Of a stretch of DNA of 42,792 nucleotides, positions 1 to 39,023 are shown piece by piece; position 1 is the first letter of the stretch, and each line of letters begins with the position of its first letter. A model generated the notes under the pieces. That model made no database searches. It was not told the DNA's origin and saw only the letters and a program-made list of their open reading frames with translations. The position numbers and the translations under genes were made by a program. This stretch comes from a virus (taxonomy: Duplodnaviria > Caudoviricetes): the IMG/VR virus record IMGVR_UViG_3300038393_003169, positions 1 through 42,792 of that record, one strand, 5' to 3'.

Positions 1-44
1 TCATAACCCGAAGGTCGCAGGTTCGAATCCTGCCCCCGCTACCA
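1..44 (+). tRNA. 3' half of initiator tRNA-Met(CAT), probable att site; 5' half would lie outside the window
   Basis: TCATAACCCGAAGGTCGCAGGTTCGAATCCTGCCCCCGCTACCA: CAT anticodon at 2-4, T-arm GCAGG-TTCGAAT-CCTGC, acceptor strand ending CCA; matches bacterial tRNA-fMet 3' half. Confidence 0.92.
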
Positions 45-1551
45 CGTTTATATGCTTTTCCGATCCGGCGATCTCTGCGAAGAGGTCGCCGTTTTCGTTT
101 TGCACGACCGGAATCTTGTCGCCCAGCAGGTCGCGAAGCGCAGTGCGAGCGGCGGGCAGGTCTCGGGCGTGGTCGGCCAGGTGGTCGACGATGCGGCGCC
201 ATACTTCGCGAGCGCGCGGCAGGAACTGGGCGGGCTGGTAGTTGCGCAGCTGCGCGAGCTCGGCCTTGGCGGTGGCGACGTCACGCTCTGCCGCGAGCAG
301 CTCGGCCTTCGTGCTCGCGGTGATGATGCCGGCCTTGATGGCGGTCATCAGGTTCGCTTGCACGCGCTCGGCGTCGGCCAGGCGCCGGCGGGCACCAGCT
401 TCGTCCGGCGCGGCGCTCTTGAGGGCAGCGGCGGCTGCGCGTTGGAACTGTTGGAAAGCGGCCTCGCTCAGCAGATCGCGCTGGATGGTGGTCAGCAGCG
501 CCGCATCGGTGCGTTTGATCTGCAGGCGGATCCGCGAGGGGCAGGCAGCGTCGCCTCGGTCCTTGTGCCTGGCGCATCCGTAGTAGCGATCGATGACCAC
601 CAGCGGGCCGCCACAGTGGCCGCAGCGCAGGATGCCGCTGAGCAGGTAGCGTGAGGGGCGACCCGGGCCGCCACGCTTGTCAGTGCCGGTGCGCTTCACC
701 GCCGCACCGCGCATGCGCGCCTGGGCGGCGTCCCACGTCGCCTGGTCGATGATGGCCAGCTCCGGCACGTCGGTGATGATCCATTCGCTCTCTGGGCGGT
801 CCTGCCGCACGCGGCGGCCGGTTTCCGGGTGCTTCACCCAGTGGCTCTTGTTCCAGATCTGGCGTCCCACGTAAATCGGGTTGGCGAGGATGCCGATGCC
901 GCGGCGCTGGTCGGGGTACACAGCGGTCATCGACCAGGTGCCGCCGCGCGTGGCGGCAATGCGGTCGCGGTTGAGGTTCGCCACGATCTGGCGCGGGCTG
1001 CTGCCTGCGATGTATTCGGCGAAGATCCGGCGCACGATGGCCCCTTGGGCTTCGTCGATCGCACGCTGGCCCACTTCCGTGACGCGGTACCCGTAGGGCA
1101 GGCCGCCGGCGCTGGCGCCCGCGAGCGCGCGCCCAGTGAGCCCGCGGTGCGTTTTCTCCGCGAGGTCGTCCAGGTACAGCTCGGACATAAGCCCGCGCAG
1201 GCCCACGTCTGCCTTGTGGTTCTTGCGCGCGGTGTCCACGCCGTCGCTGACGCCGATGAGGCGCACGCCGGCGAAGGTGAGGCGCTTGACCGCGCGGTGG
1301 CATTCGGCCTGGTCGCGGGACAGGCGCGAAATATCGTCCACCAGCACGACGTCGAAGGCGTCGGCCTGGTCGAGCAGCTGCAGGTAGCTCACGCGATCGC
1401 CACGCGAGCCGCTCACCGCAGCATCGGTGAACACCACGGGCGCTGGCCAGCCCTGCCGCTGGCAGTAGGCGCGGCAGTTGCGCAGCTGGTCGTCCAGGCT
1501 GGCGTCGCGCTGGTTGTCGCTCGAGTAGCGAGCGTAGGCGGCAGTTCGCAT
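1..1551 (-). CDS. Large serine recombinase (integrase)
   Basis: YARYSS catalytic Ser motif, DDISRLSR, recombinase domain (LPYGYR, ILANPIYVG), zinc ribbon LLSGILRCGHCG, coiled coil. Confidence 0.96.
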   Translation of the reverse strand: MRTAAYARYSSDNQRDASLDDQLRNCRAYCQRQGWPAPVVFTDAAVSGSRGDRVSYLQLLDQADAFDVVLVDDISRLSRDQAECHRAVKRLTFAGVRLIGVSDGVDTARKNHKADVGLRGLMSELYLDDLAEKTHRGLTGRALAGASAGGLPYGYRVTEVGQRAIDEAQGAIVRRIFAEYIAGSSPRQIVANLNRDRIAATRGGTWSMTAVYPDQRRGIGILANPIYVGRQIWNKSHWVKHPETGRRVRQDRPESEWIITDVPELAIIDQATWDAAQARMRGAAVKRTGTDKRGGPGRPSRYLLSGILRCGHCGGPLVVIDRYYGCARHKDRGDAACPSRIRLQIKRTDAALLTTIQRDLLSEAAFQQFQRAAAAALKSAAPDEAGARRRLADAERVQANLMTAIKAGIITASTKAELLAAERDVATAKAELAQLRNYQPAQFLPRAREVWRRIVDHLADHARDLPAARTALRDLLGDKIPVVQNENGDLFAEIAGSEKHINVVAGAGFEPATFGL

Positions 1552-1560
1552 CGCGTGGAT

Positions 1561-1719
1561 TTACGCAGCCTTGTGAATTTGGTGCAACGGGACGTGATCC
1601 GAGCGCTTGCCGGGCTCATCCTCGTTTGATGCGGTTTTGGCCGTCAGATATTCGTCGGCGGCCTGGCGGGCAAGGGCTTCGATCAGCGGCGCGAGGGCAG
1701 GGTGCAAGGTATCAGCCAC
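1561..1719 (-). CDS. 52-aa protein not in the ORF track (MADTLHPALAPLIEALARQAADEYL...KAA); candidate recombination directionality factor
   Basis: GTG start with GGAGG RBS, overlaps the stop of the upstream gene and ends 10 bp before the integrase ATG; function is positional inference. Confidence 0.65.
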   Translation of the reverse strand: MADTLHPALAPLIEALARQAADEYLTAKTASNEDEPGKRSDHVPLHQIHKAA

Positions 1720-2482
1720 GGGTAGCCTCCACGCGACGGAAAGCCACGACCCAAACCCACGGGTTCGCGTCCCAACTGCCGGCGCCGTTGATCGACTCGA
1801 ACAGTCGACGGAACGCCTGCCGCGCGGAGACGTTGCCGCCCGCAGCTACGGGCCCGGTTGGGTCGCTTTCGAGCTGCTCCGGGATGAAGTATTCCCGTGT
1901 GCCGTCGTAGTTGAAGGCAGCGGCGCCTTCGCGCGTGATGAAGCCCTCGGCGAGCACGTCCGCCTCGCTGATGTCCTGCAGGCGCTCCACGCGCACGCCG
2001 GTCACCTCCAAGGTGAGGCGACTGGCCCAGCGGGGCATGAAAAGCGGCGTTACGTCGCCACGGTCGGCGGCCTTGGGCAGCGTCCAATCCGGGCTGGCTT
2101 CGTTGATCGTTGCGTCGTGGAAGTAGCGCTTTTCTCCGTCGGCGCGGTATTCGATCTCGACGTCGCCGCAGTCGCAGGCATCCAGCGCGCAGCTGTGGGC
2201 GACGTAGGGGCGCCAGCGTTCTTTCACCCACAGACGGTCGCCGGCCCGACCGTAGGGGCACAGATAGCCAAGGCCGGGTGTTGCCAGCGCACGAGGGAAG
2301 CCTTCAGCGAACGGATGCCAGGCGACGTTTTGCTCGGTGATCAACACGCCCTTGTGGCACCACTCCATCCAACGGCCCTTCATCGTGGGCTGCGGCTTGA
2401 TCACCCGACGCGTCTGCGTCTTGCGGCCGTCGAGGATGGCGCGGACCATGGGCGCACTGAACAGGATCGGACGCTCACGCAT
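1712..2482 (-). CDS. ASCH/PUA-like conserved phage protein
   Basis: N-terminus MRERPILFSAPMVRAILDGRKTQTRR, CPYGxxGDRLWVKE, MPRWASRLTLEVTGVRVERLQDISEAD, WDANPWVWV. Confidence 0.8.
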   Translation of the reverse strand: MRERPILFSAPMVRAILDGRKTQTRRVIKPQPTMKGRWMEWCHKGVLITEQNVAWHPFAEGFPRALATPGLGYLCPYGRAGDRLWVKERWRPYVAHSCALDACDCGDVEIEYRADGEKRYFHDATINEASPDWTLPKAADRGDVTPLFMPRWASRLTLEVTGVRVERLQDISEADVLAEGFITREGAAAFNYDGTREYFIPEQLESDPTGPVAAGGNVSARQAFRRLFESINGAGSWDANPWVWVVAFRRVEATRG

Positions 2483-2966
2483 GGCAGGTCTCCTGGGGAG
2501 CATCGGCTTCGGTCGTGCTGAGCAGAGCGAGGCCGCCGCAAATGTCCAGGAGCATCATCGACATGTTCGCCACGTCGGCGGCGTGCTCACGGATGCCATC
2601 GGCGTCATCGTTCTTGACCGCCCTCTGGAGCTTCGCGGCGTGGTAGTAGATTTCCAGCATGCCAATGGCCGGCGTCATGGTCAGCCAGCCGGGACGGTCG
2701 CCCTTGCCAGAGTTTGCATGCAGCTCCTTTGCCATCTGGCGTGCGAACGGCACAAGGACATCGTCGTACTTGGCGTCGATCACCGCACCTGCGGAACGTG
2801 AAGCCACTGCCAATGCAACGGCGCGCACGCCGGCCTCGATCGAGGCGTCAAGTTGATGATTGGTAGGTTCGCCATCCATGCCGACCATTTGAGCCAAGGC
2901 CGCCACGCAGGTGACTTTGTACTTGCGTACCAGCGCGTCCATCTGCTCGTCCGAAAAAGAGTTCAT
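2475..2966 (-). CDS. Phage hypothetical protein, C-terminal half MazG/all-alpha NTP pyrophosphatase-like
   Basis: ATG overlaps RT stop (ATGA); motif FARQMAKEL..N.GKG..GW...REHAADVANMSMML; family call tentative. Confidence 0.6.
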   Translation of the reverse strand: MNSFSDEQMDALVRKYKVTCVAALAQMVGMDGEPTNHQLDASIEAGVRAVALAVASRSAGAVIDAKYDDVLVPFARQMAKELHANSGKGDRPGWLTMTPAIGMLEIYYHAAKLQRAVKNDDADGIREHAADVANMSMMLLDICGGLALLSTTEADAPQETCHA

Positions 2967-4321
2967 GCGTGCGTGGTCCTCACGGTGATGCGCTGACCGC
3001 TGAGTCGGTGGTGGAAGCGGCGGCGTGGGTTGGTGAGCGCGGCCAGCCAGGGGCGGCGGCGCAGGAGGCGTTGCTGCAGGCGCCAGCTGTTGGCGTGGGC
3101 GAAGTGGCCCTGGTAGCTGGCCCAGATGGCGTCGAGGCGCTGGAAGTCTTCGGGCGTGGCGCGGAAGCTGCTGCCGCTGGCGTGCGCCTGGTGCCACTGC
3201 TGCAGGCTATCGGCGGCATGGCGCAGCACGCGCGGGCGAACCCGGGTGTGCGTGGGATAGACCACGTAGCCGAGGAAGTCGATGCCGGCGGAGAGCGGGC
3301 GCAGGCGCTGGTCGGCCTTGAGGCCCAGGTGCAGCTCGCGGCCGAGGAAGCGCTCGATCTGCTGGCGCCACTGCTCGAGCTGGGCGCGGTCGCGGTGCAC
3401 CAGCACGAAGTCGTCGACGTAGCGCAGGTAGCGCTTCGCCTTGAGGGTGTGCTTGACGAAGTGGTCCAGCGCGTCGAGGTAGACGTTGGCGAAGAACTGC
3501 GAGGACAGATTACCGATCGGCAGGCCGCAGCCCGGCGGCGCATTCTCCAGGCGCTTGTGCGGCGGCACCAGCGCGCGCTGGTCGGGCGGGGCACGATGGA
3601 TGACGCCCTGGCGCTGCACCGGGTGGCGCAGCAGGGCATGCACGGTGCGCAGTGCCACCTCGCCCAGCCCCGCGCGCGTGAGGCGCGCCTTGAGCATGCG
3701 GTAGAGCGTGGGGCGGTGGATCGAGTTGAAGAAGTTGTGCACGTCCAGCTGCAGGTACCAGCCGCCGCGCTGGCCGCTGTGCACCTGGCGCACGTACTGC
3801 TTGAGGCGCCGCACGGCGGCATGGGTGCCCTTGCCTTTGCGGTTGGCATAGCTGTCGTGGATGAATCCCGGTTCCCAGATGGCTTCCAGCTGCGGCACCA
3901 GCCAGTGGTGCACCACGCGGTCGCCGAAGTCGGGGGCGTGGATCTCGCGTGCCTTGGGGCGGGTGGCCACGAAGCAGGTGGTGGGCGCCGGCGACCAGGT
4001 TCCGGCGTTCAGGCGCTCCTGCAGGTCGAGCAGGCGATCGATGGAGCGCAGTTCGAAGGCCAGCTGGTTGGCGCTGGGCCGTTTCTTGCGGCGGGCTGCC
4101 TGCCACGCCTGGTACAACGCCCGCAGGCTCACTTCACCCTGACACTCACCGGCCGGCGACGACACGCCACGCACAGCCCGGACGAACGCCCGGTTGTTGC
4201 GGTTGTTGTTGTTCACGTTGCCGTTGTTGAAGTTGACGATCCACGCGCAGCCCGAAGACCACGCCTCCCCGCGCACTTGCGACCCGGCCGTGCATCCATG
4301 CGGGTAGCGCGGCGTCGTCAT
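2963..4321 (-). CDS. brt: DGR reverse transcriptase; N-terminus includes the template repeat (alternative GTG start at 4132)
   Basis: KAREIHAPDFGDRVVHH, DSYANRKGKGTH, YLQLDVHNFFNSI, GLPIGNLSSQFFANVYL (DGR-type SQ motif), YLRYVDDF, GIDFLGY; adjacent avd and TR. Confidence 0.97.
   Translation of the reverse strand: MTTPRYPHGCTAGSQVRGEAWSSGCAWIVNFNNGNVNNNNRNNRAFVRAVRGVSSPAGECQGEVSLRALYQAWQAARRKKRPSANQLAFELRSIDRLLDLQERLNAGTWSPAPTTCFVATRPKAREIHAPDFGDRVVHHWLVPQLEAIWEPGFIHDSYANRKGKGTHAAVRRLKQYVRQVHSGQRGGWYLQLDVHNFFNSIHRPTLYRMLKARLTRAGLGEVALRTVHALLRHPVQRQGVIHRAPPDQRALVPPHKRLENAPPGCGLPIGNLSSQFFANVYLDALDHFVKHTLKAKRYLRYVDDFVLVHRDRAQLEQWRQQIERFLGRELHLGLKADQRLRPLSAGIDFLGYVVYPTHTRVRPRVLRHAADSLQQWHQAHASGSSFRATPEDFQRLDAIWASYQGHFAHANSWRLQQRLLRRRPWLAALTNPRRRFHHRLSGQRITVRTTHA
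4148..4265 (-). repeat. DGR template repeat (TR), 118 bp
   Basis: Reads AWSSGCAWIVNFNNGNVNNNNRNNRAFVRAVRGVSSPAG; 21 adenines, confined to ten AAC codons and one ATC; near-identical to 4786-4903 and 6397-6513. Confidence 0.98.
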
Positions 4322-4752
4322 CGATTGGCCTCATACGTCGAGGCGGCGTGGGTGCTCAGTGTCTTGGCACGCTGCCCGGGCGCTCGCGCCTGGGCATTCT
4401 GGCCTTGAGGGTGATGCTGCTTGTGCCAGCCGCCGACCTGACGCCCCATCGCGGCGGCGGCACGCGCCAAGGCTTCGAACTGGCCGAAGCTGGCGAACAC
4501 TCGCAACTGCTTGCCCAGCTGCAGGGCGAGCTTGAGCTCATCGACCTCCCACACCAGCCGCTCCAGCCAATGCGCTTGGTGCGCGCGGTCACGCGCAGCG
4601 CGGTTGGCGGTGGAGAACACGGCCCACGCGCACGCACGGAGCTTGGCCCCGTACGTATAGCGATAGTCGCGCTTGAACCGGGCCACGGCTTGCTCGATGT
4701 CTCGGGCAAGGCCTTCGGCTTGGCGCACGGCGGGTGGGAGTGTGAAGTTCAC
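4318..4752 (-). CDS. avd: DGR accessory variability determinant (Avd-like four-helix bundle)
   Basis: 144-aa basic helical protein between VR1 and TR/RT; RFKRDYRYTYGAKLR and GRQVGGWHK motifs. Confidence 0.9.
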   Translation of the reverse strand: MNFTLPPAVRQAEGLARDIEQAVARFKRDYRYTYGAKLRACAWAVFSTANRAARDRAHQAHWLERLVWEVDELKLALQLGKQLRVFASFGQFEALARAAAAMGRQVGGWHKQHHPQGQNAQARAPGQRAKTLSTHAASTYEANR

Positions 4753-4765
4753 GGTCGGGAACTCA

Positions 4766-4777
4766 GGCCAAGAGGCC
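4766..4777 (-). promoter_or_regulatory. Short hairpin (GGCC-TCTT-GGCC) 3' of VR1, candidate DGR target-recognition element
   Basis: Identical 12-mer at the same distance 3' of VR2 and absent 3' of TR; stem is only 4 bp. Confidence 0.6.
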
Positions 4778-4779
4778 GA

Positions 4780-5313
4780 TCACTGACCGGCCGGCGACGA
4801 CACGCCACGCACAGCCCGGACGAACGCCCGGTCGTGGCGGTTGCCGTAGTCCACGTAGCCGCCGTCGAAGTGGACGATCCACGCGCAGCCCGAAGACCAC
4901 GCCGTGGGCGTGCGGGTCCAGGTCCAGCCAGCGTTGCTCTTGAAGAACGCCGTGTCGATGCAGGGGTTATGGCGAGTCAAGTCGCGGAGGGATTCCAGCT
5001 CTTCCAGATCCGGGAGGCGCCAGTCTTCGAAGCCGCCAAGGCGAAGCTCGGCGCAATGCTTTTCGGCATCGGCGAACGTGAGTTCCTTCGCGCTTTCCTC
5101 GGCGGCCCACTGCAGGCCAGTCTTGTGGTCGGTGACGGTGGTGCCGTCGCTCGACCGTTCGAATCGCTCGGTGGTGTCGGCGGTGGCTGTGACGGTTTCG
5201 GCCTCGGTCGAGATCGCGCGTGCCAGCGCGTCCAGGCCCTGCATCGAGAACATTCGCGGCTGAGGTTGCAGGTTGATGGTGAGGCGCTCGATATGGATGG
5301 CAGGTGTGTTCAT
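4780..5313 (-). CDS. DGR target 1, DUF1566 (Lcl/C-type lectin-fold) protein, 177 aa
   Basis: VTDHKTGLQW, LGGFEDWRLPDLEELESL, IDTAFF, WTWTRT motifs; VR1 at C-terminus; AGGA RBS before ATG 5313. Confidence 0.92.
   Translation of the reverse strand: MNTPAIHIERLTINLQPQPRMFSMQGLDALARAISTEAETVTATADTTERFERSSDGTTVTDHKTGLQWAAEESAKELTFADAEKHCAELRLGGFEDWRLPDLEELESLRDLTRHNPCIDTAFFKSNAGWTWTRTPTAWSSGCAWIVHFDGGYVDYGNRHDRAFVRAVRGVSSPAGQ
4786..4903 (-). repeat. DGR variable repeat VR1
   Basis: 118-bp match to TR with 11 mismatches, all at TR adenines. Confidence 0.98.
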
Positions 5314-5326
5314 GGTTGCCCTGTTC

Positions 5327-5566
5327 CTATGGGTGGGAGCCGGCGGCGCCGGCGGGGTGTGAGTCGTCGTTGGGCACGCCGAGCGCGGCCCAGGTGACCG
5401 GCCGTTTGTTCCGGCGAAGGGCGTGCACGCGGGCGCGGGCCTTGTCCTGGTCGACGCCCATGCGCGCAGCAATCTCGGTATAGGTGTGCGCCTGGCCGCT
5501 AACGCGGACCAGGTGCGTTTGCTTGCGCCGCTGTTGCGGCGTGGTGGGATAGAGCTTCACGGGCAT
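5327..5566 (-). CDS. Small basic HTH-like protein
   Basis: GGAGG RBS; TYTEIAARMGVDQDKARARVHALRR resembles an HTH. Confidence 0.65.
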   Translation of the reverse strand: MPVKLYPTTPQQRRKQTHLVRVSGQAHTYTEIAARMGVDQDKARARVHALRRNKRPVTWAALGVPNDDSHPAGAAGSHP

Positions 5567-5874
5567 ACCGCCTCCATCGCCTCGGCGAGGGACTGCGCGG
5601 CGAAATCGAGGCGGGCGCGTTCCAGGTCGTCTTGGATTTCGCACCAGCCCACGCTCGGCCGCTTGCGGTAACGGGCGATGATCTGGTGAGGCACGACGCG
5701 CTCTATCGAGCGGGCAACAGGGTGCGAGGCCGGCTCGAGGTAGAGACACCCGTCGTCGCCGCGCCAGCACACATGGATGGTGCCCTCCGGCGCGAAGCGG
5801 ACGCGGTAGCGGATCGCCAACGCGAGCATGGGCAGATTGGCCGCGACGTGGCCGATGGGGCGAACCTCGCTCAT
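5557..5874 (-). CDS. Hypothetical protein
   Basis: Overlaps neighbours at both ends within the leftward operon. Confidence 0.7.
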   Translation of the reverse strand: MSEVRPIGHVAANLPMLALAIRYRVRFAPEGTIHVCWRGDDGCLYLEPASHPVARSIERVVPHQIIARYRKRPSVGWCEIQDDLERARLDFAAQSLAEAMEAVCP

Positions 5875-6149
5875 GCTGCTACCGCCTTCAAACGCGGCAT
5901 GACGGGTAGCATCAGCCCGGCCTGATCCCAGGCCATTTCGTTCAACAGGTCTAGCAGGCGTTGCTGGTCCCCATCGAAGATGGCTAAGCGGATGGCCTGC
6001 CAGCGTTCGGCGCAGGTTTGTTCGCGAGCGAGCGGGCCTGCCGCGCGGTAGAGCCCCACCTTGGCAAGGTCGGCGTCGCTGATGTCAAGAAGATCTTCGG
6101 CGTCGATGTCCACATCGACGTAGACGGTTTTTTCTACGGAGATTCCCAT
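5871..6149 (-). CDS. Hypothetical protein (MGISVEKTVYVDVDID...)
   Basis: GGGGA RBS; stop overlaps the next ATG. Confidence 0.72.
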   Translation of the reverse strand: MGISVEKTVYVDVDIDAEDLLDISDADLAKVGLYRAAGPLAREQTCAERWQAIRLAIFDGDQQRLLDLLNEMAWDQAGLMLPVMPRLKAVAA

Positions 6150-6162
6150 TGTTTTTCCCCTA

Positions 6163-6360
6163 TCAGGCGGGCTGCGAGGCGTTGGCCGGCAGGTCGGGAT
6201 AGCTGCCCCACGGGGCGTGCACTTCCTTCCAGACGCTGCCTGTGTGACCAACGCAATCGCGGCGCACGTAGCGGCACATCCGGCCGCCTTGCCAGATCTC
6301 GCGCTGGTTGGTGGCGCGGTTGTCGAAGACGCCTTCGAAGAGGTCGGGCGTTGTGGGCAT
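6163..6360 (-). CDS. Hypothetical protein (MPTTPDLFEGVFDNRAT...)
   Basis: GGGGGA RBS; fills the gap between target 2 and the next gene. Confidence 0.65.
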   Translation of the reverse strand: MPTTPDLFEGVFDNRATNQREIWQGGRMCRYVRRDCVGHTGSVWKEVHAPWGSYPDLPANASQPA

Positions 6361-6376
6361 GGCGTTCCCCCTGCCG

Positions 6377-6388
6377 GGCCAAGAGGCC
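6377..6388 (-). promoter_or_regulatory. Short hairpin (GGCC-TCTT-GGCC) 3' of VR2
   Basis: Same 12-mer and spacing as 4766-4777. Confidence 0.6.
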
Positions 6389-6390
6389 AA

Positions 6391-6825
6391 TCACTGACCG
6401 GCCGGCGACGACACGCCACGCACAGCCCGGACGAACGCCCGGCTGTTGCGGTTGCCGTAGCCCACGTGGCCGTAGTAGAAGGCGACGAGCCACGCGCAGC
6501 CCGAAGACCACGCGCTGATGGTGCTGCTCCAGTACCAGTCGCTCTTGCAACCGGGGAAGGCGTTGGTGTCGATCGCCGGTAACCTGCGGCTGTGGTCGAC
6601 CAGGCCGAACAGCTCCTGGATGGTGGGCAGGCGCCAGTCGTCGAAGCCAAGGAAGCGCTCGGCATTGAGGGCGGCGATCTTGGCCTCGGCATCAGCATGC
6701 GTGATCTCGCCCAGTTCGCCGGCGGTCCACATCAGCGCCGTGCGCGTGTCGACGACAGCGGCGTGGTTCTTGGCGTTGGCGCGGGCAGGCTTGCCGCTGG
6801 CGGCAATCTTGGAGAAGTGCGACAT
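6391..6825 (-). CDS. DGR target 2, DUF1566 (Lcl/C-type lectin-fold) protein, 144 aa
   Basis: VVDTRTALMW, LGFDDWRLPTIQELFGL, IDTNAFP, WYWSST motifs; VR2 at C-terminus; AAGGA RBS. Confidence 0.92.
   Translation of the reverse strand: MSHFSKIAASGKPARANAKNHAAVVDTRTALMWTAGELGEITHADAEAKIAALNAERFLGFDDWRLPTIQELFGLVDHSRRLPAIDTNAFPGCKSDWYWSSTISAWSSGCAWLVAFYYGHVGYGNRNSRAFVRAVRGVSSPAGQ
6397..6513 (-). repeat. DGR variable repeat VR2
   Basis: 117-bp match to TR with 12 mismatches, all at TR adenines. Confidence 0.98.
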
Positions 6826-7042
6826 GGTCAGTCCTTGTCGGTGGCGGCTTTGGCCGCGTGGAGTGCGCGCAGGCGCGGGTAGGCTGGACTCAACAGCGCC
6901 CTGCTGGCCGCAGGGGGACGGCCCACGCCGAGGGGTGGCGTGTGCAAGGCGCTGATGGGTGCCGCCTGTGGGGCTTCCGAGGCGGCGGCGGTGACTTCGG
7001 CGCACAGCGCGGCGCTGCCGTCCAGGTCGATGCACCAGGTGG

Positions 7043-7342
7043 TCACGGCTTGCACGTGGCCGGCCGTTCCGCCGGGCCCTTCCGGCCTTCGGCGATGGCC
7101 CCTTCGGACCAATCAAAGGCCGGGCGTTCCATGACCGGCGTCGTGTCCTTGACCTGCAAACGGTTCACGTCGAACCACTGCGAGTCGCGGATAGCGCCTG
7201 CTTCGCCGACGCCTGGATTGACGATGGCCTGGATGCACCCATACAGGTCGAAACTGATCGAGGTCACGACCCCGGCAAAGCCAGTCACGCGGTCTTCGAC
7301 GCGAAGGCCGAGCAGGTCGAGGTGCTGCTTCAAGTTCACCAT
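7043..7342 (-). CDS. Conserved phage hypothetical protein (small beta-rich)
   Basis: AGGAG RBS; LLGLRVEDRVTGFAGVVTS...LYGC...WFDVNRL pattern. Confidence 0.75.
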   Translation of the reverse strand: MVNLKQHLDLLGLRVEDRVTGFAGVVTSISFDLYGCIQAIVNPGVGEAGAIRDSQWFDVNRLQVKDTTPVMERPAFDWSEGAIAEGRKGPAERPATCKP

Positions 7343-7371
7343 TGGATTGCTCCTGTTGTGGATCGAGGTGG

Positions 7372-7725
7372 TCATGCCGGCTGGTCCTGGCGAAAGAAGC
7401 CGGCATGTCGGCGGGCCCCATCGGCACGTGGACGTGACCGAAGTAGCGCCTGCAGGTGATCCCATGCGGCCTGGGTATCGGCGTCGTCGGCGGGATGCAG
7501 ACCAGCCTGAAGACGGACGACGGCGTGCACGCGCGCGCGTCGAGCGCGATCCTGGTCGGCCGCGGTGATGGCTTCATGCTCGCGGTGCAGCGCATGCACC
7601 AGGTCGCAGGTGGCGCGGTTGACAACCGCGACCTCGCCGGCGAGATCTATGTCCCCTTGTTCGGCAAGGGCGTCGACGACACGGTTGGCCACCGCGCAGG
7701 CGTAGGGCAGGGCGCGGTCGGTCAT
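7372..7725 (-). CDS. Hypothetical protein
   Basis: ATGA overlap with the upstream gene. Confidence 0.62.
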   Translation of the reverse strand: MTDRALPYACAVANRVVDALAEQGDIDLAGEVAVVNRATCDLVHALHREHEAITAADQDRARRARVHAVVRLQAGLHPADDADTQAAWDHLQALLRSRPRADGARRHAGFFRQDQPA

Positions 7726-8027
7726 GGCGTCCACCAGCCGAAATAGAGGGCGAGCAGGGCGCCGTCGGCGGCGCCGATCAGGACGGCGAACAGGATCCAC
7801 ACCGGGCGCATGCTGTCGTGCGCACGCCACAGCGCATCGACCAGGCGATCGAGACGGCTGGGGAGAGGCGGCTTGACCAACGCGAGCATCGGCTTCGGGT
7901 CTGCGCGCCACTCCTGTTCGCGCACGCGCAGGGAACGGCGCTCGCTGTGGAAGATGGCGTCGGCCTGGGCGGCGCTGTAAGCGGCGATGCCATGCCGCTG
8001 GCGTAGGTTCTGGGTGGGGGCGCTCAT
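7722..8027 (-). CDS. Hypothetical membrane protein
   Basis: C-terminal hydrophobic segment VWILFAVLIGAADGALLALYFGWW; coupled to neighbours. Confidence 0.7.
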   Translation of the reverse strand: MSAPTQNLRQRHGIAAYSAAQADAIFHSERRSLRVREQEWRADPKPMLALVKPPLPSRLDRLVDALWRAHDSMRPVWILFAVLIGAADGALLALYFGWWTP

Positions 8028-8233
8028 GCGTGACCGCCAGAACTCAGCCAGCCCACCCAGCGGAACGCGTTCTCGCTATGGAAGGCTGCCATCTTGCGCA
8101 GGCCTTCGGCGATGCCGATGGAGAGGCTCGGTTCGTCGGCCGCGAACGCTGCCATGCGCAGCGCGTCCTCGCAATTCTTCGCCTCGTGGACGATGCCGGC
8201 CTTGGCGCGCTCGCTGCGCTCTGCCGTGTTCAT
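8024..8233 (-). CDS. Hypothetical protein (MNTAERSERAK...)
   Basis: ATGA overlaps at both ends. Confidence 0.68.
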   Translation of the reverse strand: MNTAERSERAKAGIVHEAKNCEDALRMAAFAADEPSLSIGIAEGLRKMAAFHSENAFRWVGWLSSGGHA

Positions 8234-8508
8234 GCGGCCGCCTGGCGCGACTGGCGCGCGGGCAGGCGCAGCGACAGCTGCGGGAAGCTGCGCCACTCGG
8301 CCTCGGCATCGGCGAGGGACGTATGAAGGCCGGTGCTATGACCGCAGTCGCGGGTGGTGCACTGGACGGCATGGCGTTCGCCGCTGGGGGCGAACTGCAC
8401 CGGTTCGTTGATACCGCGGCCACGGGCGATCACGTGGCGCGGTTCCAGGCCGCACCGCGGGCATGCGGTGAACCGACCGGGTTCGTGCTGGACGACTCGC
8501 TGGAGCAT
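8230..8508 (-). CDS. Zinc-ribbon protein, Lar (restriction alleviation)-like; first gene of the leftward operon
   Basis: AAGGAGG RBS; CPRCG...VQCTTRDCG...AEAEW pattern; Lar similarity tentative. Confidence 0.7.
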   Translation of the reverse strand: MLQRVVQHEPGRFTACPRCGLEPRHVIARGRGINEPVQFAPSGERHAVQCTTRDCGHSTGLHTSLADAEAEWRSFPQLSLRLPARQSRQAAA

Positions 8509-8544
8509 GGTCCCCTCCTTGCCCCGTGGTAGGGGCGTGAAGGG

Positions 8545-8573
8545 ACGTTAGCGCTCAGCTAAACGTGTGTCAA
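8545..8573 (-). promoter_or_regulatory. Leftward early sigma70 promoter (PL-like)
   Basis: TTGACA-17 bp-TAACGT on the minus strand, 37 bp upstream of the first leftward gene. Confidence 0.85.
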
Positions 8574-8587
8574 TAGCTAACAGCTAA
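8548..8587. promoter_or_regulatory. Left operators: TTAGC-GCTCA-GCTAA (8548-8562) and ATAGC-TAACA-GCTAA (8573-8587)
   Basis: 15-bp dyads overlapping PL; same consensus recurs between cI and cro. Confidence 0.82.
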
Positions 8588-8609
8588 ATCGTTTAGCGGG
8601 CAATCTCTG

Positions 8610-8996
8610 CTACGTCGCACGGCCAGCAAGGGCGGCGGCATCCAGGACCCGCCGGACGGCTTCGGATGCTGCGCGGTAGTTGTCGATGAGTGCCAGCTCG
8701 CGCCGTGTAAGCGCGATTGACGGCGGATCTGGCATGTAGTGCGGGGATGGCTCCGCGACTTTGCCCTCATCCCACAGCGGGCGATCCATTGCGCCCCGGT
8801 CGAAGCCCAGTCCGGACTCGATTTTTCGCGCGGTGTCGTCGCCCATCTTCTTGCCAGCCTTTAGCTGGCTGAGGTACGAGGCGCCGATGCCGCCGAGTGC
8901 TTGGCCGGCATCCTTGTGTTTCGTGACGCCACGGCCCGGCAGCACCTGGTTAAGCAGATGTAGCAAGTTTCGGTGCCGTATCTGGTTGACGTCCAT
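8610..8996 (-). CDS. CI-like XRE-family repressor without a peptidase S24 domain
   Basis: IRHRNL...ASYLSQLKAGKKMGDDTARKIESGLG..GAMD HTH pattern; divergent from cro. Confidence 0.87.
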   Translation of the reverse strand: MDVNQIRHRNLLHLLNQVLPGRGVTKHKDAGQALGGIGASYLSQLKAGKKMGDDTARKIESGLGFDRGAMDRPLWDEGKVAEPSPHYMPDPPSIALTRRELALIDNYRAASEAVRRVLDAAALAGRAT

Positions 8997-9005
8997 GCGC
9001 GAATT

Positions 9006-9070
9006 TTAGCCTTTGCCTAATTTTCAGCGGTTAGCTGAGGGCTTTACAGAAACCTTTAGCTGTGCGCTAA
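9006..9070. promoter_or_regulatory. Right operators: 9006-9020, 9024-9038, 9056-9070 (consensus TTAGC-N5-GCTAA)
   Basis: TTAGCCTTTGCCTAA, TCAGCGGTTAGCTGA, TTAGCTGTGCGCTAA in the AT-rich cI-cro spacer. Confidence 0.82.
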
Positions 9071-9079
9071 ATACGCTCC

Positions 9080-9340
9080 ATGGACCAGACGCCCGCCACT
9101 GAGACCCCTACAGGCATCGCTGCGTTGGATTTGGCGTGTCGCCTATTGGGAAGCCAGGACAGCCTGGCAGACACGCTTCAGATCAAGTCGCCGTCGATTA
9201 CCGGCTGGCGGGACCGCAACCGCGTTCCAGCTGAGCGTTGCCGGGAGATCGAAGCAGCGACCCACGGCCGCGTGACCCGCTATCAACTGCGGCCCGACGT
9301 TTTCGGGCCCGCCCCGCAACCCGTCCAGCAGGCCGGCTGA
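9080..9340 (+). CDS. Cro/YdaS-like regulator
   Basis: GSQDSLADTLQIKSPSITGW...VPAERCREIEAATHGRVTRYQLRPDVF. Confidence 0.9.
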   Translation: MDQTPATETPTGIAALDLACRLLGSQDSLADTLQIKSPSITGWRDRNRVPAERCREIEAATHGRVTRYQLRPDVFGPAPQPVQQAG

Positions 9341-9424
9341 CATGGCCGGCTTTCGCATGGGTTTCGCGGAACAGGGCAGGGCGGTCTTCATCCGCTCACG
9401 TTCTCATCACATGGGCGAGCGCGC

Positions 9425-10027
9425 ATGAACCCGAATTCTCATATTTCGCGACCGCTGCTGCTGATGGACATCACCGAGCGGGCCGTTCGCGAGACGCGGG
9501 GTGGTGTCATCGCCTTCGCTGACCGCGTTGCCGACTTCTACCTGGAATCGGTGCCGGCCGAGCAGCGACGGGCCAAGATCAAGCCAGTGGTGGGCGACAT
9601 CGCGCAGATGTCCGCGGCGCAGCGTGCGAACCGGCAAACGGTGGACCGCTACATCAAGGGCGACGTCAAGGCGTTCCCCGCGGACCTCGAGGAAGCCTGG
9701 GTTCGCGCCTTGCAGGAACCGTATCAGGGCGAGGCATTGCGCGAGCTCTCGGCGCGCTATGGGTTGCTGCCGGCGCGGGTGCGCTTGGATCAGGCACCCA
9801 TCGCCACGCTAGGTGACCTCACGGCACGCGTCGGCGATTTGCTGACGCGCACAGCGCCGATCGTCTCCGACAACAAGATCGATGCGGCGGACCAGCCGTT
9901 CATCAAGCCGGCATTGGCGGCGATCGTTGAACTACAGGCGCAGCTGGCCAGCCTCGAAGCGCAGCTCATTGCTGCGCTGCCCGACGCCGGCGCGACGGTG
10001 CATCCACTGGTTCGTTCGAAAAGCTAA
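9425..10027 (+). CDS. Phage regulatory protein, CII-like by position
   Basis: Directly after cro; helical, with a DNKIDAAD motif as in CII-type proteins. Confidence 0.7.
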   Translation: MNPNSHISRPLLLMDITERAVRETRGGVIAFADRVADFYLESVPAEQRRAKIKPVVGDIAQMSAAQRANRQTVDRYIKGDVKAFPADLEEAWVRALQEPYQGEALRELSARYGLLPARVRLDQAPIATLGDLTARVGDLLTRTAPIVSDNKIDAADQPFIKPALAAIVELQAQLASLEAQLIAALPDAGATVHPLVRSKS

Positions 10028-18206: not shown

Positions 18207-19283
18207 GTGAAGGCTAGAAAACGCCGGAAATTGAAGGCGCGCCGCTTTGAGGCGTCGCGGAGGGCTAAGCGCGCGCGGCAGCGTCAGCGTCGCCAGAGGT
18301 CGCGGGCGCGCCCACCTTCGCCTCTCAGGTACTCGTTAATTCGGTCTGGTGAGTGCACTGTCCGGGTGCCAGCGTCGATCACCATCGTCGGGCGGCCTTA
18401 CCATCGCGCGCTGACCGGCTTTCTGACGGAGTTGCGGCGTGCGTTCGCCCAGCAGTCCCGCGCGGTTTGCGTCGACTTCTCCGCAACCCAAAAGCTATTT
18501 CCCGAAGGCATGCTGCTGCTCTACTCGGAGCTTGACCGCCTTCGGACCCTTTTCCCCGCGAAGGAGGTCCGTTGCATTCCCAGCCCGAACAAGACGGTCG
18601 ACGGGGTGCTTCAGCACCTGGGCGTTTACGCTATGGTCAACCACCTGAGCGAGAGCGCGCCTGAGGGTGACGACGTAGTGGGCTGGAAAGTCCACTACGG
18701 CATGGACGTCAACGGAGATGTCTTTGGGCCGCCGATTGAGGCCCTAGGCCTCAAGACGGAGCACACGAGCGGCCTATTTAAGGGCGTTTCCGAGGCGGTC
18801 ACCAATGTCCGCCACCATGCCCATCTCGCGGAACGCAAGGACGGGTTACAATTACCTGGACCACGCAAATGGTGGATGTTCATCCACGAGTCGGAACAAC
18901 GACTCTACGTGGCGGTCTGCGATCTTGGCATAGGCATCCCCCGGTCCCTGCCGCTTTGGCATGGGCCTGAGGCCGTTGCCCATGCGCTTCGCGTCATGTT
19001 TGGACGTCGGCGGTACAACGATGGGATGCGGATTAAAGCCGCCCTAAGGTTGCGCCGATCACGAACTGATGCCGGGAACCGTGGTAAGGGTTTCTCCGAC
19101 ATCATCGCGGCGCTCAACACGATGCCTGAGAGCAGAATGACGATCTTCAGTAACCACGGCGCACTCCGGTACAACCCGAGCGATCGGCTGCCTGCGATCA
19201 AGGTACGGACGTTTGAAAACTCGATACTTGGCACCATCATTGCTTGGCAGTTCCCTGCAAGGGGCAAAGACCATGGCCATTGA
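18207..19283 (+). CDS. GHKL/HATPase_c protein with N-terminal STAS-like region (moron)
   Basis: N-box SEAVTNVRHHA, G1 CDLGIGIP, G2 RGKGF, terminal GT; VCVDFSATQKLFPEGMLLL is STAS-like; start uncertain. Confidence 0.8.
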   Translation: MKARKRRKLKARRFEASRRAKRARQRQRRQRSRARPPSPLRYSLIRSGECTVRVPASITIVGRPYHRALTGFLTELRRAFAQQSRAVCVDFSATQKLFPEGMLLLYSELDRLRTLFPAKEVRCIPSPNKTVDGVLQHLGVYAMVNHLSESAPEGDDVVGWKVHYGMDVNGDVFGPPIEALGLKTEHTSGLFKGVSEAVTNVRHHAHLAERKDGLQLPGPRKWWMFIHESEQRLYVAVCDLGIGIPRSLPLWHGPEAVAHALRVMFGRRRYNDGMRIKAALRLRRSRTDAGNRGKGFSDIIAALNTMPESRMTIFSNHGALRYNPSDRLPAIKVRTFENSILGTIIAWQFPARGKDHGH

Positions 19284-19593
19284 AATCATTTCGGTTGCTC
19301 GAGACTTCAGCAGATTCCCTGCTGGTCGATTCATCGATGACGGCCCGTACAGTGGACAGGCCTTCCGTGATCGGCTGCTCGCCCCCTTGCTGGAGCAAGG
19401 CAAGGATGTGGAGATCGATCTCGATGGCGTTCTTGGCTACGGATCCTCGTTCCTCGAGGAAGCGTTCGGTGGGCTCATTCGTCGAGGCTTTCGAGCCGAC
19501 CAGCTTCTTGCCCGGCTGCGATTCAAGTCGTCTTCGGACCCGACCGTCGAGCGGGAGATTAAGGGCTACATCAAGCACGCCGCAGCGGCCTAG
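19273..19593 (+). CDS. Stand-alone STAS-like (DUF4325-like) protein
   Basis: FSRFPAGRF.DDGPYSGQAFR...IDLDGVLGYGSSFLEEAFGGL. Confidence 0.87.
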   Translation: MAIEIISVARDFSRFPAGRFIDDGPYSGQAFRDRLLAPLLEQGKDVEIDLDGVLGYGSSFLEEAFGGLIRRGFRADQLLARLRFKSSSDPTVEREIKGYIKHAAAA

Positions 19594-19604
19594 GCTGTGG
19601 CTGC

Positions 19605-20189
19605 ATGGGACACGTCCTTGGGCAGGTATTGCACGCGGTAGGTCAAATAGTTACGTGGTTACTGGTGATCCTTGGTTGGGTGGTCGTTAGCAACCTGCAG
19701 GACTACCGCGAGCTGCGTAAGGACCGTGTTGCCAGGGTGAGTGAGGTGCGCAAGCGCCTTCACGAGTTCGAACAGGAAGCTTTGGACTTCCATACGTCCG
19801 AATTCCAGATGCAGAAGGTCCTTTCGGTTGTAGGCTCTTTGTCGACTTTGGGTCGCGAGCTGCACTTCCTGCAGGCGTGCGAGTACATCGCATTCGAGTA
19901 CCAAGAGCCCTTTGTGGCCTTGCGAAAGGCATGCACCAACTTGAACTTTGACAAGCAGGGCCACCAGGTGCTGGACCACGCCGATCCGCTATGTCTGGTG
20001 ATCAGGTCGGCAAGAGACACGCTCGATGCAGCGCTAATGGAGGCCCAAATCGCTGCTGCTCGCGATGGACGCACGCCAACCGACGTCGTCGTCTCTGTGG
20101 TCAGAGGCCTCCGCAATTCGGTTGGTCCGCTTGCCAGTACATTCATGCAATGGGTGCGTTCAAAGCTCCGCCGCAAGTCCGACGACTGA
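19605..20189 (+). CDS. Hypothetical protein with an N-terminal TM helix (moron)
   Basis: IVTWLLVILGWVVV followed by a helical domain; lower GC. Confidence 0.75.
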   Translation: MGHVLGQVLHAVGQIVTWLLVILGWVVVSNLQDYRELRKDRVARVSEVRKRLHEFEQEALDFHTSEFQMQKVLSVVGSLSTLGRELHFLQACEYIAFEYQEPFVALRKACTNLNFDKQGHQVLDHADPLCLVIRSARDTLDAALMEAQIAAARDGRTPTDVVVSVVRGLRNSVGPLASTFMQWVRSKLRRKSDD

Positions 20190-20257: not shown

Positions 20258-20282
20258 AAACGGTTTGCCTTATTGATTTCCG
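20258..20282 (+). promoter_or_regulatory. Candidate late-promoter element, copy 1
   Basis: AAACGGTTTGCCTTATTGATTTCCG identical to 38976-39000; 22 nt before the first head gene. Confidence 0.8.
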
Positions 20283-20304
20283 TGCGGCTTGTGATTCTGG
20301 CCGC

Positions 20305-35440: not shown

Positions 35441-35863
35441 ATGACCGACAAGAAATTGAGCGACATCCGCAGCACCAACCCGGCATCGCCGCTCGACGGT
35501 ACTGAACTGGTGGAGTTCACCCAGGCCGGTGTCACCGTCGCCGGCACAGCGGCGGACCTCAAAGGCGCGCCCATGGGCATCAATGACCAGACGGGTAGCG
35601 CCTACACCCTGGTGCGTTCCGACGCAGGCAAGGACATCGTTTGCACCAGTTCGGTGGCCGTAACGCTCACGGTTCCGCCCAATGCGAGCGTGGCCTTTCC
35701 GGTCGGCACCGTCATCCACTTCTCGCAAGGGGGCACTGGCGCCGTCACCGCGGCCGCCGGCACGGGCGTCACGCTCGAGGCGCTGAACGGATTCACGACC
35801 ACCGCACAGAACGACGTGCGCGCTCTCCAGCAGGTTGCAATTGACGTTTGGAGGGTTTTATGA
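35441..35863 (+). CDS. Tail-associated adaptor-like protein
   Basis: MTDKKLSDI N-terminus; YTLVRSDAGK...TLTVPPNASVAFPVGT domain. Confidence 0.75.
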   Translation: MTDKKLSDIRSTNPASPLDGTELVEFTQAGVTVAGTAADLKGAPMGINDQTGSAYTLVRSDAGKDIVCTSSVAVTLTVPPNASVAFPVGTVIHFSQGGTGAVTAAAGTGVTLEALNGFTTTAQNDVRALQQVAIDVWRVL

Positions 35864-35909
35864 CGAGCCCGGCAGGAACGGCCTGGTGCTTTCCGAGCGG
35901 GTGCCGGGC

Positions 35910-37652
35910 ATGACGCTGTTCACCAGTCAGATCGCGGCCCTGCATCGGCCTGCTCCCGATTATCTGGACGCGCTCGCGGTTCAGCCCAAGGCCGTGTACT
36001 CGCTCAAGAAACTGGTCAGCACGGCAACGAAGTCCATCCGCGTACGCCGCTCCAGCGATAATGCCGAGCAGGATATTGGATTCACGCGCAATGAGCTGGA
36101 CGTATCCGCGCTCCTGGCATTCGCCGGGTCGTCTTCCTGCTACGTCACCACATTCTACGACCAGACCAGCGGCGCGAAGCATGCCGCGCAGGCTACTGCT
36201 GCGAACCAACCCCGCATCGTCAATGCCGGTGTCTATGACCGTAGGCTGATTTTCGACGGAGCCAATGACTCGCTGAAGATCACGAGCCTCGCAAATGGCA
36301 CGCCGCAGCTTGGTATCTACACCAAGATAAAGCAGGCGTCATCGTCCACCAATAAAATCATTATTGAAGCATCCACCAACTTCAACACAGCGGCGCAAGC
36401 GTTCCTGATGTTTACCGGCTTTGATTCGACCACTGGCTTTTATATCTGGTCACTCAATTCCAGTAACGCGGCAGGTAGTTCTCGCGGCAATCAGTCGAAC
36501 CTTTATTCTCTCGATCGACCGGCACTACTGACCGGGCTCTGGAACCGCGCCACGACTGGTGTGGGAGAAATCACGCTATACGCCGAAGGGCGGAAAATGC
36601 CGGTGGATCATGCCACGCCAAGCCCGGTGGAGCAGACAGGCAACTTCGGCACTTTCGACATCTACATCGGTGCTCGCGCCGGCACGTCTCTGTTTGCTGA
36701 TATGGAGATGGAAACGCTGGTGTTCTACGCTGCCGACACTGCCTCTATCCGCGCCTCGGTAGAGGGTGTCGTCGGTTATGGTGATTTCTTCTGGACGGCC
36801 AGGATGAACACGCCGACGACCTTCACCAAGATCGGAAGCACCTATTTCTGCGTCGATTGCTGGCATGCACGCGTGCTCTATTCGGACAACGTCAACAAGC
36901 CGATCACGCAATGGTCGCTGATGGACAACACCCTGAGGGGCCCTCACTCCATCGCCTATGACGGCTACATGTACGTCATTGAAGACACCGAAAACGGCGG
37001 CATCCGCACCTTCAAGTCCGACGGCGCAGGCGGATTTACCGCGATCACCACGCTGAGCAGCATTGGTACGCGCACTCACCGCGTGCAGTACGACAGCGCA
37101 ACGTCTTCGTTCTACGTCATTGGTGGAACGTCGCAGACCATGGCTCGCCTGACCCGATCCGGCGACACGCTGACCCTTCAGAGCAAGATCACATTGGCTT
37201 TCCTCTCGGGCCAATACAGTCGCGGGTTCCGCATCTACGACGGCAAGATGTACATCGTCTGCGAGCCGGGCAAGGTCTTCGAGGTTTCGTTCGATGGTGC
37301 CAGCACCTACACGCTGCTTAACACCTACAACACCCCCACGGGCTTCAGCTCGCCCAACGACATCTTTCGTGACTCGACCGGCAAGTGGTACCTGACCGGT
37401 ACAAACCAAGCTATGTGCCGCTTCGACCGCCTGGCAGACATGCATGCGGGCCTCGTTGAAGATGTCTACGACCTGTTCCGGCTTGGCGGCACGCCCTACT
37501 ACCTGGGCGAGTTCGACGGGTACCTCTGGATCCCCGAGATCATCGAACGAAGCGGCCTAACGCGGATCCTCAATGACGTGCCGGTGCTGGTTCACAATTT
37601 CGGGGCTGAGAACGCCAGCGACCTTGGCCGGCATACGGCGGCAGTCGGGTAG
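35910..37652 (+). CDS. Candidate receptor-binding protein: LamG/ConA-like N-terminal part plus beta-propeller-like C-terminal part
   Basis: VYSLKKL...IRVRRSSDNAEQDIGF, YDQTS, QPRIV; C-terminal short beta repeats (GPHSIAYDG, SPNDIF); last tail gene; start may be 35835. Confidence 0.7.
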   Translation: MTLFTSQIAALHRPAPDYLDALAVQPKAVYSLKKLVSTATKSIRVRRSSDNAEQDIGFTRNELDVSALLAFAGSSSCYVTTFYDQTSGAKHAAQATAANQPRIVNAGVYDRRLIFDGANDSLKITSLANGTPQLGIYTKIKQASSSTNKIIIEASTNFNTAAQAFLMFTGFDSTTGFYIWSLNSSNAAGSSRGNQSNLYSLDRPALLTGLWNRATTGVGEITLYAEGRKMPVDHATPSPVEQTGNFGTFDIYIGARAGTSLFADMEMETLVFYAADTASIRASVEGVVGYGDFFWTARMNTPTTFTKIGSTYFCVDCWHARVLYSDNVNKPITQWSLMDNTLRGPHSIAYDGYMYVIEDTENGGIRTFKSDGAGGFTAITTLSSIGTRTHRVQYDSATSSFYVIGGTSQTMARLTRSGDTLTLQSKITLAFLSGQYSRGFRIYDGKMYIVCEPGKVFEVSFDGASTYTLLNTYNTPTGFSSPNDIFRDSTGKWYLTGTNQAMCRFDRLADMHAGLVEDVYDLFRLGGTPYYLGEFDGYLWIPEIIERSGLTRILNDVPVLVHNFGAENASDLGRHTAAVG

Positions 37653-37686
37653 GGTGGCGGGTTGCCTTCATTGCGCGGCCATCGAT

Positions 37687-37716
37687 TTGGCACCCCGGGC
37701 CGATGCGGTCTAATCT
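37687..37716 (+). promoter_or_regulatory. Possible sigma70 promoter for the acyltransferase moron
   Basis: TTGGCA-18 bp-TAATCT about 30 bp before ATG 37748. Confidence 0.45.
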
Positions 37717-37747
37717 CGCTAGCACCGGGATCAGGGACGGGGGGCGC

Positions 37748-38975: not shown

Positions 38976-39000
38976 AAACGGTTTGCCTTATTGATTTCCG
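38976..39000 (+). promoter_or_regulatory. Candidate late-promoter element, copy 2
   Basis: Identical 25-mer to 20258-20282; 23 nt before the endolysin ATG. Confidence 0.8.
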
Positions 39001-39023
39001 CGTGGATGGGCACGCTGGCCCAC

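Follow-up and report, generated by a model that had tools for sequence, protein, structure and literature searches.

We analyzed a window of 42,792 nucleotides, the whole of the IMG/VR virus record IMGVR_UViG_3300038393_003169 (Duplodnaviria; Caudoviricetes), and found that it carries what is, judging from its sequence, an intact diversity-generating retroelement (DGR) with a reverse transcriptase (RT), Avd, one template repeat (TR) and two variable repeats (VRs). The two proteins that it diversifies are small, lie in the predicted early operon of the phage and have no recognizable export signal. It is on balance probable that they act early inside the cell as variable binders of host proteins, with defense components as the favored class: early timing and the lack of export signals point to intracellular action, and the binding of host defense components is plausible. 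The TR itself lies within the RT reading frame, downstream of a conserved structured RNA.

All elements of the cassette are on the minus strand: target 2 comes first, four small genes separate it from target 1, and avd and the RT frame follow. The RT open reading frame (ORF; 2963..4321, 452 amino acids) matches PF00078 (60.5 bits) and phrog_1423 (E 1.9e-101), contains a YVDD motif at residues 301-304, and has DGR RTs as its nearest cultured relatives. The avd gene (4318..4752, 144 amino acids) has a stop codon overlapping the RT ATG (ATGA); its product matches PHROG 3206, 'Avd protein of DGR' (E 4.9e-16), and scores 32.1 bits against PF22296 (bAvd), below the cut-off of 40. The TR (4148..4265) is 118 nucleotides long, with 21 adenines, ten AAC codons and one ATC codon, and could encode approximately 2.3e12 protein variants per target. 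We confirmed what a first-pass annotation of this DNA had reported, namely RT, Avd, one TR and two VRs with all 23 mismatches at TR adenines: 11 of 11 in VR1 (4786..4903; hypergeometric P = 3.7e-10, given 21 adenines in 118 positions) and 12 of 12 in VR2 (6397..6513; P = 3.8e-11). In every locus listed, the similarity between VR and TR breaks off at a conserved point, corresponding to distinct 3' ends (initiation of mutagenic homing sequences, IMH and IMH*). When the 94 non-adenine TR positions were scanned over both strands of the whole window, 94 of 94 were found only at TR, VR1 and VR2, and the next best site had 48 of 94; there is thus no third VR, and the reported lack of a VR in the tail genes holds for the entire 42.8-kb prophage. 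The adenine-only pattern and its recurrence in relatives rule out a chance repeat or an assembly artefact.

Target 1 (4780..5313, minus strand, 177 amino acids) is composed of a beta-rich leader (residues 1-18), a helix (24-45) and an Lcl_C domain with a C-type lectin fold, and target 2 (6391..6825, minus strand, 144 amino acids) is a bare Lcl_C domain. Their earlier description as stand-alone DUF1566-like proteins was borne out by Pfam (Lcl_C/DUF1566, PF07603; 95.5 bits for target 1 and 107.8 bits for target 2, cut-off 34.9). They share 69 identical residues out of 117 aligned, and both bear the VR at the C-terminus of the lectin-fold protein. An AlphaFold model of target 1, based on a 75-row alignment, reached a pLDDT of 89.6, with a confident domain from residue 50 onwards and a less certain leader. 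The model matches 8q4e. Its best solved match is the C-terminal domain of Legionella Lcl (E 3.3e-5), followed by other C-type lectin folds, and a Bdellovibrio protein domain is also among the best. A sequence search of the PDB gave nothing significant, and residues 1-48 of target 1 had no match in an Atlas search. Longer relatives of target 1 were limited to 2 matches, one of them a large Ig/PKD/fn3 protein, and provided no informative fusion domain. As first noted, no signal peptide or transmembrane segment is apparent: by hydropathy and pattern, the best 19-residue values are 0.45 and 0.87, and neither target has a lipobox. Amyloid-like signaling through a leader shared with a neighboring effector was considered and rejected, as a leader profile matched only targets among 1756 called proteins and the ORFs of the window.

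The window is a temperate siphophage-like prophage. It starts in the 3' end of a tRNA (att) next to the serine integrase gene (1..1551, minus strand) that closes the leftward operon; repressor, cro and CII-like genes lie at 8.6-10 kb, and primase, terminase, portal, head, tail and lysis genes are found to the right of this regulatory region. No second att copy was found in the window. From 8508 down to the integrase all genes point the same way, and many overlap by ATGA; one of them, near 7.4-7.7 kb, had been wrongly placed on the plus strand by the gene caller. A tRNA-Val called by ARAGORN at 7587-7677 was discarded as spurious, being located in coding sequence and unsupported by Rfam. The repressor gene (8610..8996, minus strand) is divergent from cro (9080-9340) and the CII-like gene. 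Next to it we predicted a sigma70-like early leftward promoter (8545..8573, minus strand; TTGACA-17-TAACGT, with a perfect -35, a 17-nucleotide spacer and 3 of 6 -10 positions). Two palindromic operator-like sites, recognized by sequence pattern, overlie this promoter (8548-8562 and 8573-8587), and two more lie between repressor and cro (9006-9020 and 9056-9070). The palindrome, TTAGC-N5-GCTAA, occurs in 4 copies at no more than one mismatch, compared to 0.21 expected and 0 of 100 shuffles. A generic promoter scan had no match, its -10 rule demanding 4 of 6 positions. By analogy with PL of phage lambda, we expect the cassette to be switched off in the lysogen and to be among the first genes expressed upon infection or induction.

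This predicted repression weakens the suggestion, made in the first-pass annotation, that the targets work against competing phages. In its wider form, the targets would sense or block competing phages or mobile elements, to the protection of the lysogen or of a cell undergoing induction. Variable invaders could well be met by a variable binder inside the cell, and immunity based on DGRs has been put forward for other domain sets; however, the operon is predicted to be repressed in the lysogen, no effector domain is fused to the targets or conserved nearby, and PADLOC does not match them, which makes such a role improbable. Timing also bears on whether the targets could leave the cell at lysis and work extracellularly, as soluble lectins or decoys directed at neighboring cells, biofilm or other phages. 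Their lectin fold with 2-3 cysteines would be compatible with this, and an acyltransferase moron in the same phage points to surface-level conflicts. Since early rather than late expression is predicted, and since a diffusing variant would be of little benefit to the genome encoding it, we consider release at lysis very unlikely.

To place the cassette in its family, we collected 43 viral and 32 genome loci through RT searches and excluded 8 distant loci (L063-66, L070, L073-75) and 10 near-duplicates, thus obtaining 58 loci including the window. Early markers are present in 52 of the 58, with integrase or excisionase genes downstream in 40 and regulator, replication or recombination genes upstream in 43; the other six are short contigs, Mu-like fragments or unlabeled. 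A structural gene occurs within 10 kb in 7 of the 58 loci, at 3.2-9.2 kb and never adjacent, and lies beyond an integrase or a Mor/lysis block or is encoded on the opposite strand. The early placement is kept in lambda-like, P2-like (L026) and Mu-like (L056) genomes. Together with the promoter and operators, this survey gives good support to the initial description of an early operon. The targets are also uniformly small: the complete ones (n = 120, before the last three duplicates were removed) span 85-237 amino acids with a median of 143.5, and none exceeds 250. The 55 loci with complete targets have one (8 loci), two (36), three (10) or four (1) of them. By pattern and hydropathy, a lipobox is found in 0 of 114 targets and a value above 1.6 in 1 of 114. 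When 34 whole phage records were searched for Lcl_C, 33 had matches (17 of 17 near-complete ones). By coordinate comparison every match was within approximately 7 kb of the RT, counted across the record ends in two records, and the search gave no sign of remote VRs in tail genes.

The tail-tip genes of the phage itself (35441-37652) are devoid of VRs, and the DGR targets are encoded in the early operon, not in the tail module. A separate, non-diversified tail receptor-binding module and the early placement across three phage architectures agree well with the first reading that the element does not switch tail tropism. The stated distance of more than 25 kb from the tail-tip genes is correct on the linear map (25.8 kb to the central tail gene) and fails for the circularized phage, where approximately 9.9 kb, spanning lysis genes, att and integrase, separate the last tail gene from target 1. 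These data also bear on a possible role as accessory virion adhesins, in which the targets would be produced early and attached to capsid or tail at a later stage, possibly via the beta-rich leader, with the DGR still tuning host attachment. Lcl_C is found at the tips of surface and fiber proteins, viral DGR targets tend to be structural (accessible text of Roux et al., bioRxiv 2020.04.01.020958), and host-range change is one option listed for the related phage Magia (PMC7883833). Moreover, one target per locus is often N-terminally extended: in the 47 multi-target loci, an extension of at least 25 residues is present in one target in 24 loci, in two in 7 and in none in 16, and a leader like that of target 1 is present in exactly one target in 13 of 47 loci and in two targets in none. 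However, these small proteins are found in lambda-, P2- and Mu-like phages, whose virions differ, and are at a distance from the structural operon in every case, the leader motif is in no other protein of the window or the loci, and the phage has its own tail-tip module. We therefore judge a virion role to be unlikely.

Two observations on target architecture stand apart. The closest relative (L081, RT 89%) encodes at 100-910 an extended target and, behind it, a tandem pair of nearly identical bare targets that differ in their VR alleles, and in two loci (L051:3303-3794 and L057:8397-8882) the N-terminal extension has a CxxC motif in place of the beta-rich leader.

The first-pass annotation had proposed a search for adenine-specific variation, and this was found in relatives. 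Two loci with TRs identical over 80 nucleotides (L034 and L035) have VRs that differ at 9 and 12 of 19 adenine columns and at 0 of 61 others. Another pair (L015 and L054) differs at 11, 13 and 16 of 22 adenine columns versus 1 of 58 others, and the window differs from L001 at 14 of 22 adenine columns versus 1 of 50 others; identical genomes show no VR differences. The DGR family is active, as judged from this adenine-restricted divergence among close relatives. Assembled contigs (not reads) of the likely source run contained only the TR, VR1 and VR2 alleles, and RNA libraries X2-X4, all from one study, contained relatives at approximately 90-93% identity, which is no demonstration of transcription. 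At 1110 AAY codons of the VRs, the residues are mainly Y (21%), G (17%), D (14%), S (13%), N and L, with R (0.9%) and C being rare, and the median pI is 5.2. This suits protein rather than nucleic-acid ligands. The hosts of the relatives include Dyella, Rhodanobacter, Lysobacter, Marinobacter and Rheinheimera, and the neighboring genes encode regulators, recombination functions, ParB-like proteins and methyltransferases. Such neighbors and such a host span would fit targets that are regulatory or host-takeover adaptors, adjusting to divergent host proteins in lysis-lysogeny, recombination, or protease or RNA polymerase binding, with no part in counter-defense. Conserved housekeeping ligands, however, would not require a continued, near-saturating turnover of the VRs, and we see little likelihood in this explanation.

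The cassette has its TR within the RT reading frame, which the first-pass annotation had not recorded. The conserved RT core starts at 4132, and the first 63 codons of the frame traverse the TR and the RNA upstream of it. In 49 of the 50 loci with a called avd, its stop codon overlaps an ATG, and an in-frame ATG from which the frame stays open into the RT core is present in 52 of 56 loci (compared to 11 and 1 for the other two frames; 4 loci have none), including all 5 loci in which the TR is read out of frame. No alternative start is present near the RT core in 27 of 48 loci. Since the avd stop and the ATG overlap, the in-frame ATG is widespread and many loci offer no alternative start, the RT is likely translated through the TR. 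According to the accessible text of Roux et al. (bioRxiv 2020.04.01.020958), the TR is mostly intergenic in DGRs.

The distance from the TR end to the RT core is 4-33 nucleotides in all 56 loci with both flanks (15 nucleotides in the window), and leaves no space for a 140-nucleotide spacer 3' of the TR of the type known from Bordetella phage BPP-1. Instead, approximately 130 nucleotides upstream of the TR are conserved at the nucleotide level, and correspond to a putative structured helper RNA (4268..4395, minus strand) that lies 5' of the TR within avd and the RT frame. From 5' to 3' it is composed of a hairpin (4395-4374), a predicted primer strand (4363-4358) followed by G4357, a stop-like helix (4352-4346 with 4274-4268), a short stem-loop near 4343-4329 and a stem-loop at 4313-4287. 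The TR 3' flank on the IMH* side (4141..4147, minus strand) would provide, by analogy with the BPP-1 structure, the template strand of the priming duplex (4146-4141) and the first templated base (G4147). Across the alignment, 96.8% of the cells in three helices are paired, compared to 82.5% in shuffles, a level reached in 0 of 500 shuffles (slid controls 26-51%), and double-sided changes number 103 versus 20. A 6-bp long-range duplex connects an upstream GAYACT-type strand with the bases directly 3' of the TR. Its variable column is paired in 56 of 56 loci (C-G in 24, U-A in 13, A-U in 12, U-G in 7; shuffle mean 31.5, maximum 40), the column next to it covaries in three loci, and an invariant G opposite an invariant G adjoins the duplex, as in BPP-1. 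The far-upstream hairpin has a z below -1.5 in 30 of 56 loci, whereas a control window in avd never does (0 of 56). Folding of the single sequence 4125-4405 was no better than shuffles (z 0.07), and the support for the structure is covariation. A covariance model (R1) matched 8 clade loci and L082 outside its building set, as well as 6 of the 8 distant loci, and had no match in BPP-1 or in the phages Magia, Haboob and QDWS. In Rfam, including the RT-associated motifs RT-1 to RT-19, only a tRNA fragment was found at E <= 1 (window 1-10000). The six distant loci matched by R1 (L063, L064, L066, L070, L073 and L074) come from Polaromonas, Methylococcaceae, Rubrivivax and Moraxellaceae assemblies, and one has an 855-918 amino acid target.

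The order of these elements recalls the spacer of BPP-1. As described in the accessible text of Handa et al. (bioRxiv 10.1101/2023.10.23.563531), that spacer begins with an Avd-binding hairpin, a primer strand ending at A56 and G57 facing TR G117, and continues with a stop duplex formed with the sequence immediately 5' of the TR, a short stem-loop with adenines, a single-stranded ring and an RT-binding stem-loop. Since the upstream RNA shows this order, we infer that the template RNA of the window is a circular permutation of the BPP-1 RNA, with the roles of the elements assigned by analogy. BPP-1 (mtd-avd-TR-Sp-brt) further shares with the window the order target-avd-TR-RT, an AAC-rich TR, adenine-only changes, a C-terminal VR in a C-type lectin fold and, in the predicted RNA, a priming duplex followed by G opposite G, a stop helix and a short stem-loop with adenines. 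It differs in its RT (35% identical), in its single 381-amino-acid tail target instead of two small early proteins, and in having its 140-nucleotide spacer 3' of the TR, whereas the equivalent RNA of the window lies 5' of it.

Taken together, these features suggest the following mechanism. Derepression would produce one transcript carrying targets, avd, helper RNA, TR and RT, and the RT would be translated through the TR by coupling to the avd stop. The RNA would fold such that the upstream strand, by base pairing to the TR 3' flank, can serve as primer for cDNA synthesis, in the manner of a circularly permuted BPP-1 RNA. Mutagenized cDNA would home to either VR via the shared 3' element, and each phage lineage could thus sample up to approximately 1e12 binding surfaces per protein. 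The small, soluble lectin-fold products would bind host proteins right after infection or induction, most likely blunting host defenses. We put forward only tentatively, as possible rather than probable, the full proposal that temperate Gammaproteobacteria phages carry an antibody-like intracellular counter-defense repertoire, randomized by a DGR from a circularly permuted template RNA that doubles as RT coding sequence, and switched on with the first lytic transcript. If such a repertoire exists, selection acting on single phage genomes would pick the variants that neutralize the defense protein or immune signal of the current host.

Several points weigh against this interpretation. Lcl_C is usually an extracellular domain, as in the Legionella and Bdellovibrio proteins that are the best solved matches, and viral look-alikes include tail-fiber and collagen-repeat proteins. 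Neither target is matched by PADLOC. Among the mostly structural viral targets of Roux et al., one kinase is the exception proposed to manipulate the host (bioRxiv 2020.04.01.020958, accessible text), and the accessible part of the Lifelines NEXT preprint, a gut-virome survey, has no DGR on known anti-defense proteins. The promoter pattern has a single match in the window versus 0.07 expected, yet 7 of 100 shuffles also match and its -10 is weak. Structural neighbors may be undercounted, as labels come from PHROGs scans of 149 + 131 representatives (280) out of 881 clusters and singletons. The family-wide mismatch total of 1857 at adenines versus 28 elsewhere is partly due to construction, since the VR finder penalizes non-adenine mismatches. 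The covariation shuffle takes no account of relatedness, and the alignment used for the test also served to derive the RNA structure; one A-C mismatch is present in the stop-like helix of the window.

A published cultured example of this layout already exists in the temperate Burkholderia cenocepacia phage Magia (MT701587; PMC7883833), whose avd-TR-RT cassette and short lectin-fold targets are located, as in the window, between the repressor region and the integrase. The cassette of the window is a member of the DGR family that, judged by the position of its targets, does not belong to the BPP-1 tropism type, and represents a common, uncharacterized variant. Magia, Pseudomonas phage Haboob and Shewanella phage QDWS all share with the window one extended target plus bare ones and a TR that abuts the RT, and their VR mismatches are adenine-only (15, 11 and 8 in Magia; 13 and 18 in Haboob; 12 and 15 in QDWS; the Haboob and QDWS cassettes are unannotated, and the Haboob paper does not mention a DGR). 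Unlike the window, these Magia-type DGRs form a sister clade with RTs 43% identical and only distantly similar targets, and R1 fails on their upstream region. The Magia announcement names two targets and is silent on early placement and on an intracellular role (PMC7883833). In addition, we observed three adenine-only VRs in Magia (L077:501-881, 6510-6872 and 6903-7367), with gene 46, annotated as hypothetical, as a third target unnamed in that paper.

The target domain is also that of category 'd' DUF1566/CLec2 DGRs of the Legionella LdtA type, although LdtA is a surface lipoprotein and the family of the window has no lipobox. In the accessible text of Wu et al. 2018 (PMC5758913), short stand-alone DUF1566 proteins make up about half of category d targets, 13% of DGRs have two targets, and short DUF1566 targets are not linked to phage early operons. 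Most prophage DGR targets are of unknown function (accessible text of Benler et al. 2018, PMC6199706). Xylella phage Xfas53 encodes among small non-structural genes a 156-amino-acid, stand-alone Lcl_C-like relative of target 1 (MT084350; L076:1135-1605; 31% identity). Unlike the window, it has no RT in the 9.6 kb shown nor among the 40 listed of 143 RT matches, and appears to be a non-diversified copy. Our literature search found no virion proteomics of cultured relatives, and no publication that describes either an early-operon position combined with an intracellular role or a priming RNA upstream; the search left subscription literature mostly uncovered, and supplements may list clade members.

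Phage DGRs are usually read as tropism switches, and a widespread clade that hypermutates early, signal-less proteins would, if confirmed, extend them to intracellular conflicts. This is directly testable, as clade members occur in cultured environmental hosts (Rhodanobacter glycinis, Arenimonas caeni, Rheinheimera soli, Luteimonas and Marinobacter). The upstream helper RNA predicts a second wiring of DGR priming, and may account for some of the 71 out of 278 Avd-bearing DGRs for which no downstream elements were reported (207 had them; accessible text of Handa et al., bioRxiv 10.1101/2023.10.23.563531). In the accessible text of PMC11661182, TR-RT overlaps are treated as inconsistent and filtered out, and detection tools of this kind would discard the clade.

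Finally, we noted several features elsewhere in the prophage. Directly downstream of the RT (1712-2966) are an ASCH-like gene (phrog_874), of a type that recurs in 12 loci of the DGR family, and a gene for a 163-amino-acid protein that looks MazG-like by motif (no database match). Between terminase and portal (18207-20189), three genes (358, 148 and 194 amino acids) resemble moron-like cargo; the first matches phrog_3364 (unknown) and none matched Pfam or PADLOC. The tail-tip region (35441-38863) encodes an adaptor (140 amino acids), a likely receptor-binding protein of 605 amino acids and then an O-antigen acetylase-like acyltransferase (PF01757) with the potential to modify the host surface. 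The right prophage end (41780-42792) holds a gene for an SOS-response-associated peptidase (SRAP), and Magia has one beside its integrase. A 45-nucleotide direct repeat (20258-20302 and 38976-39020), with the first 26 nucleotides identical, precedes both the head-tail/portal genes and the lysis genes, and is likely a late-promoter or activator site.

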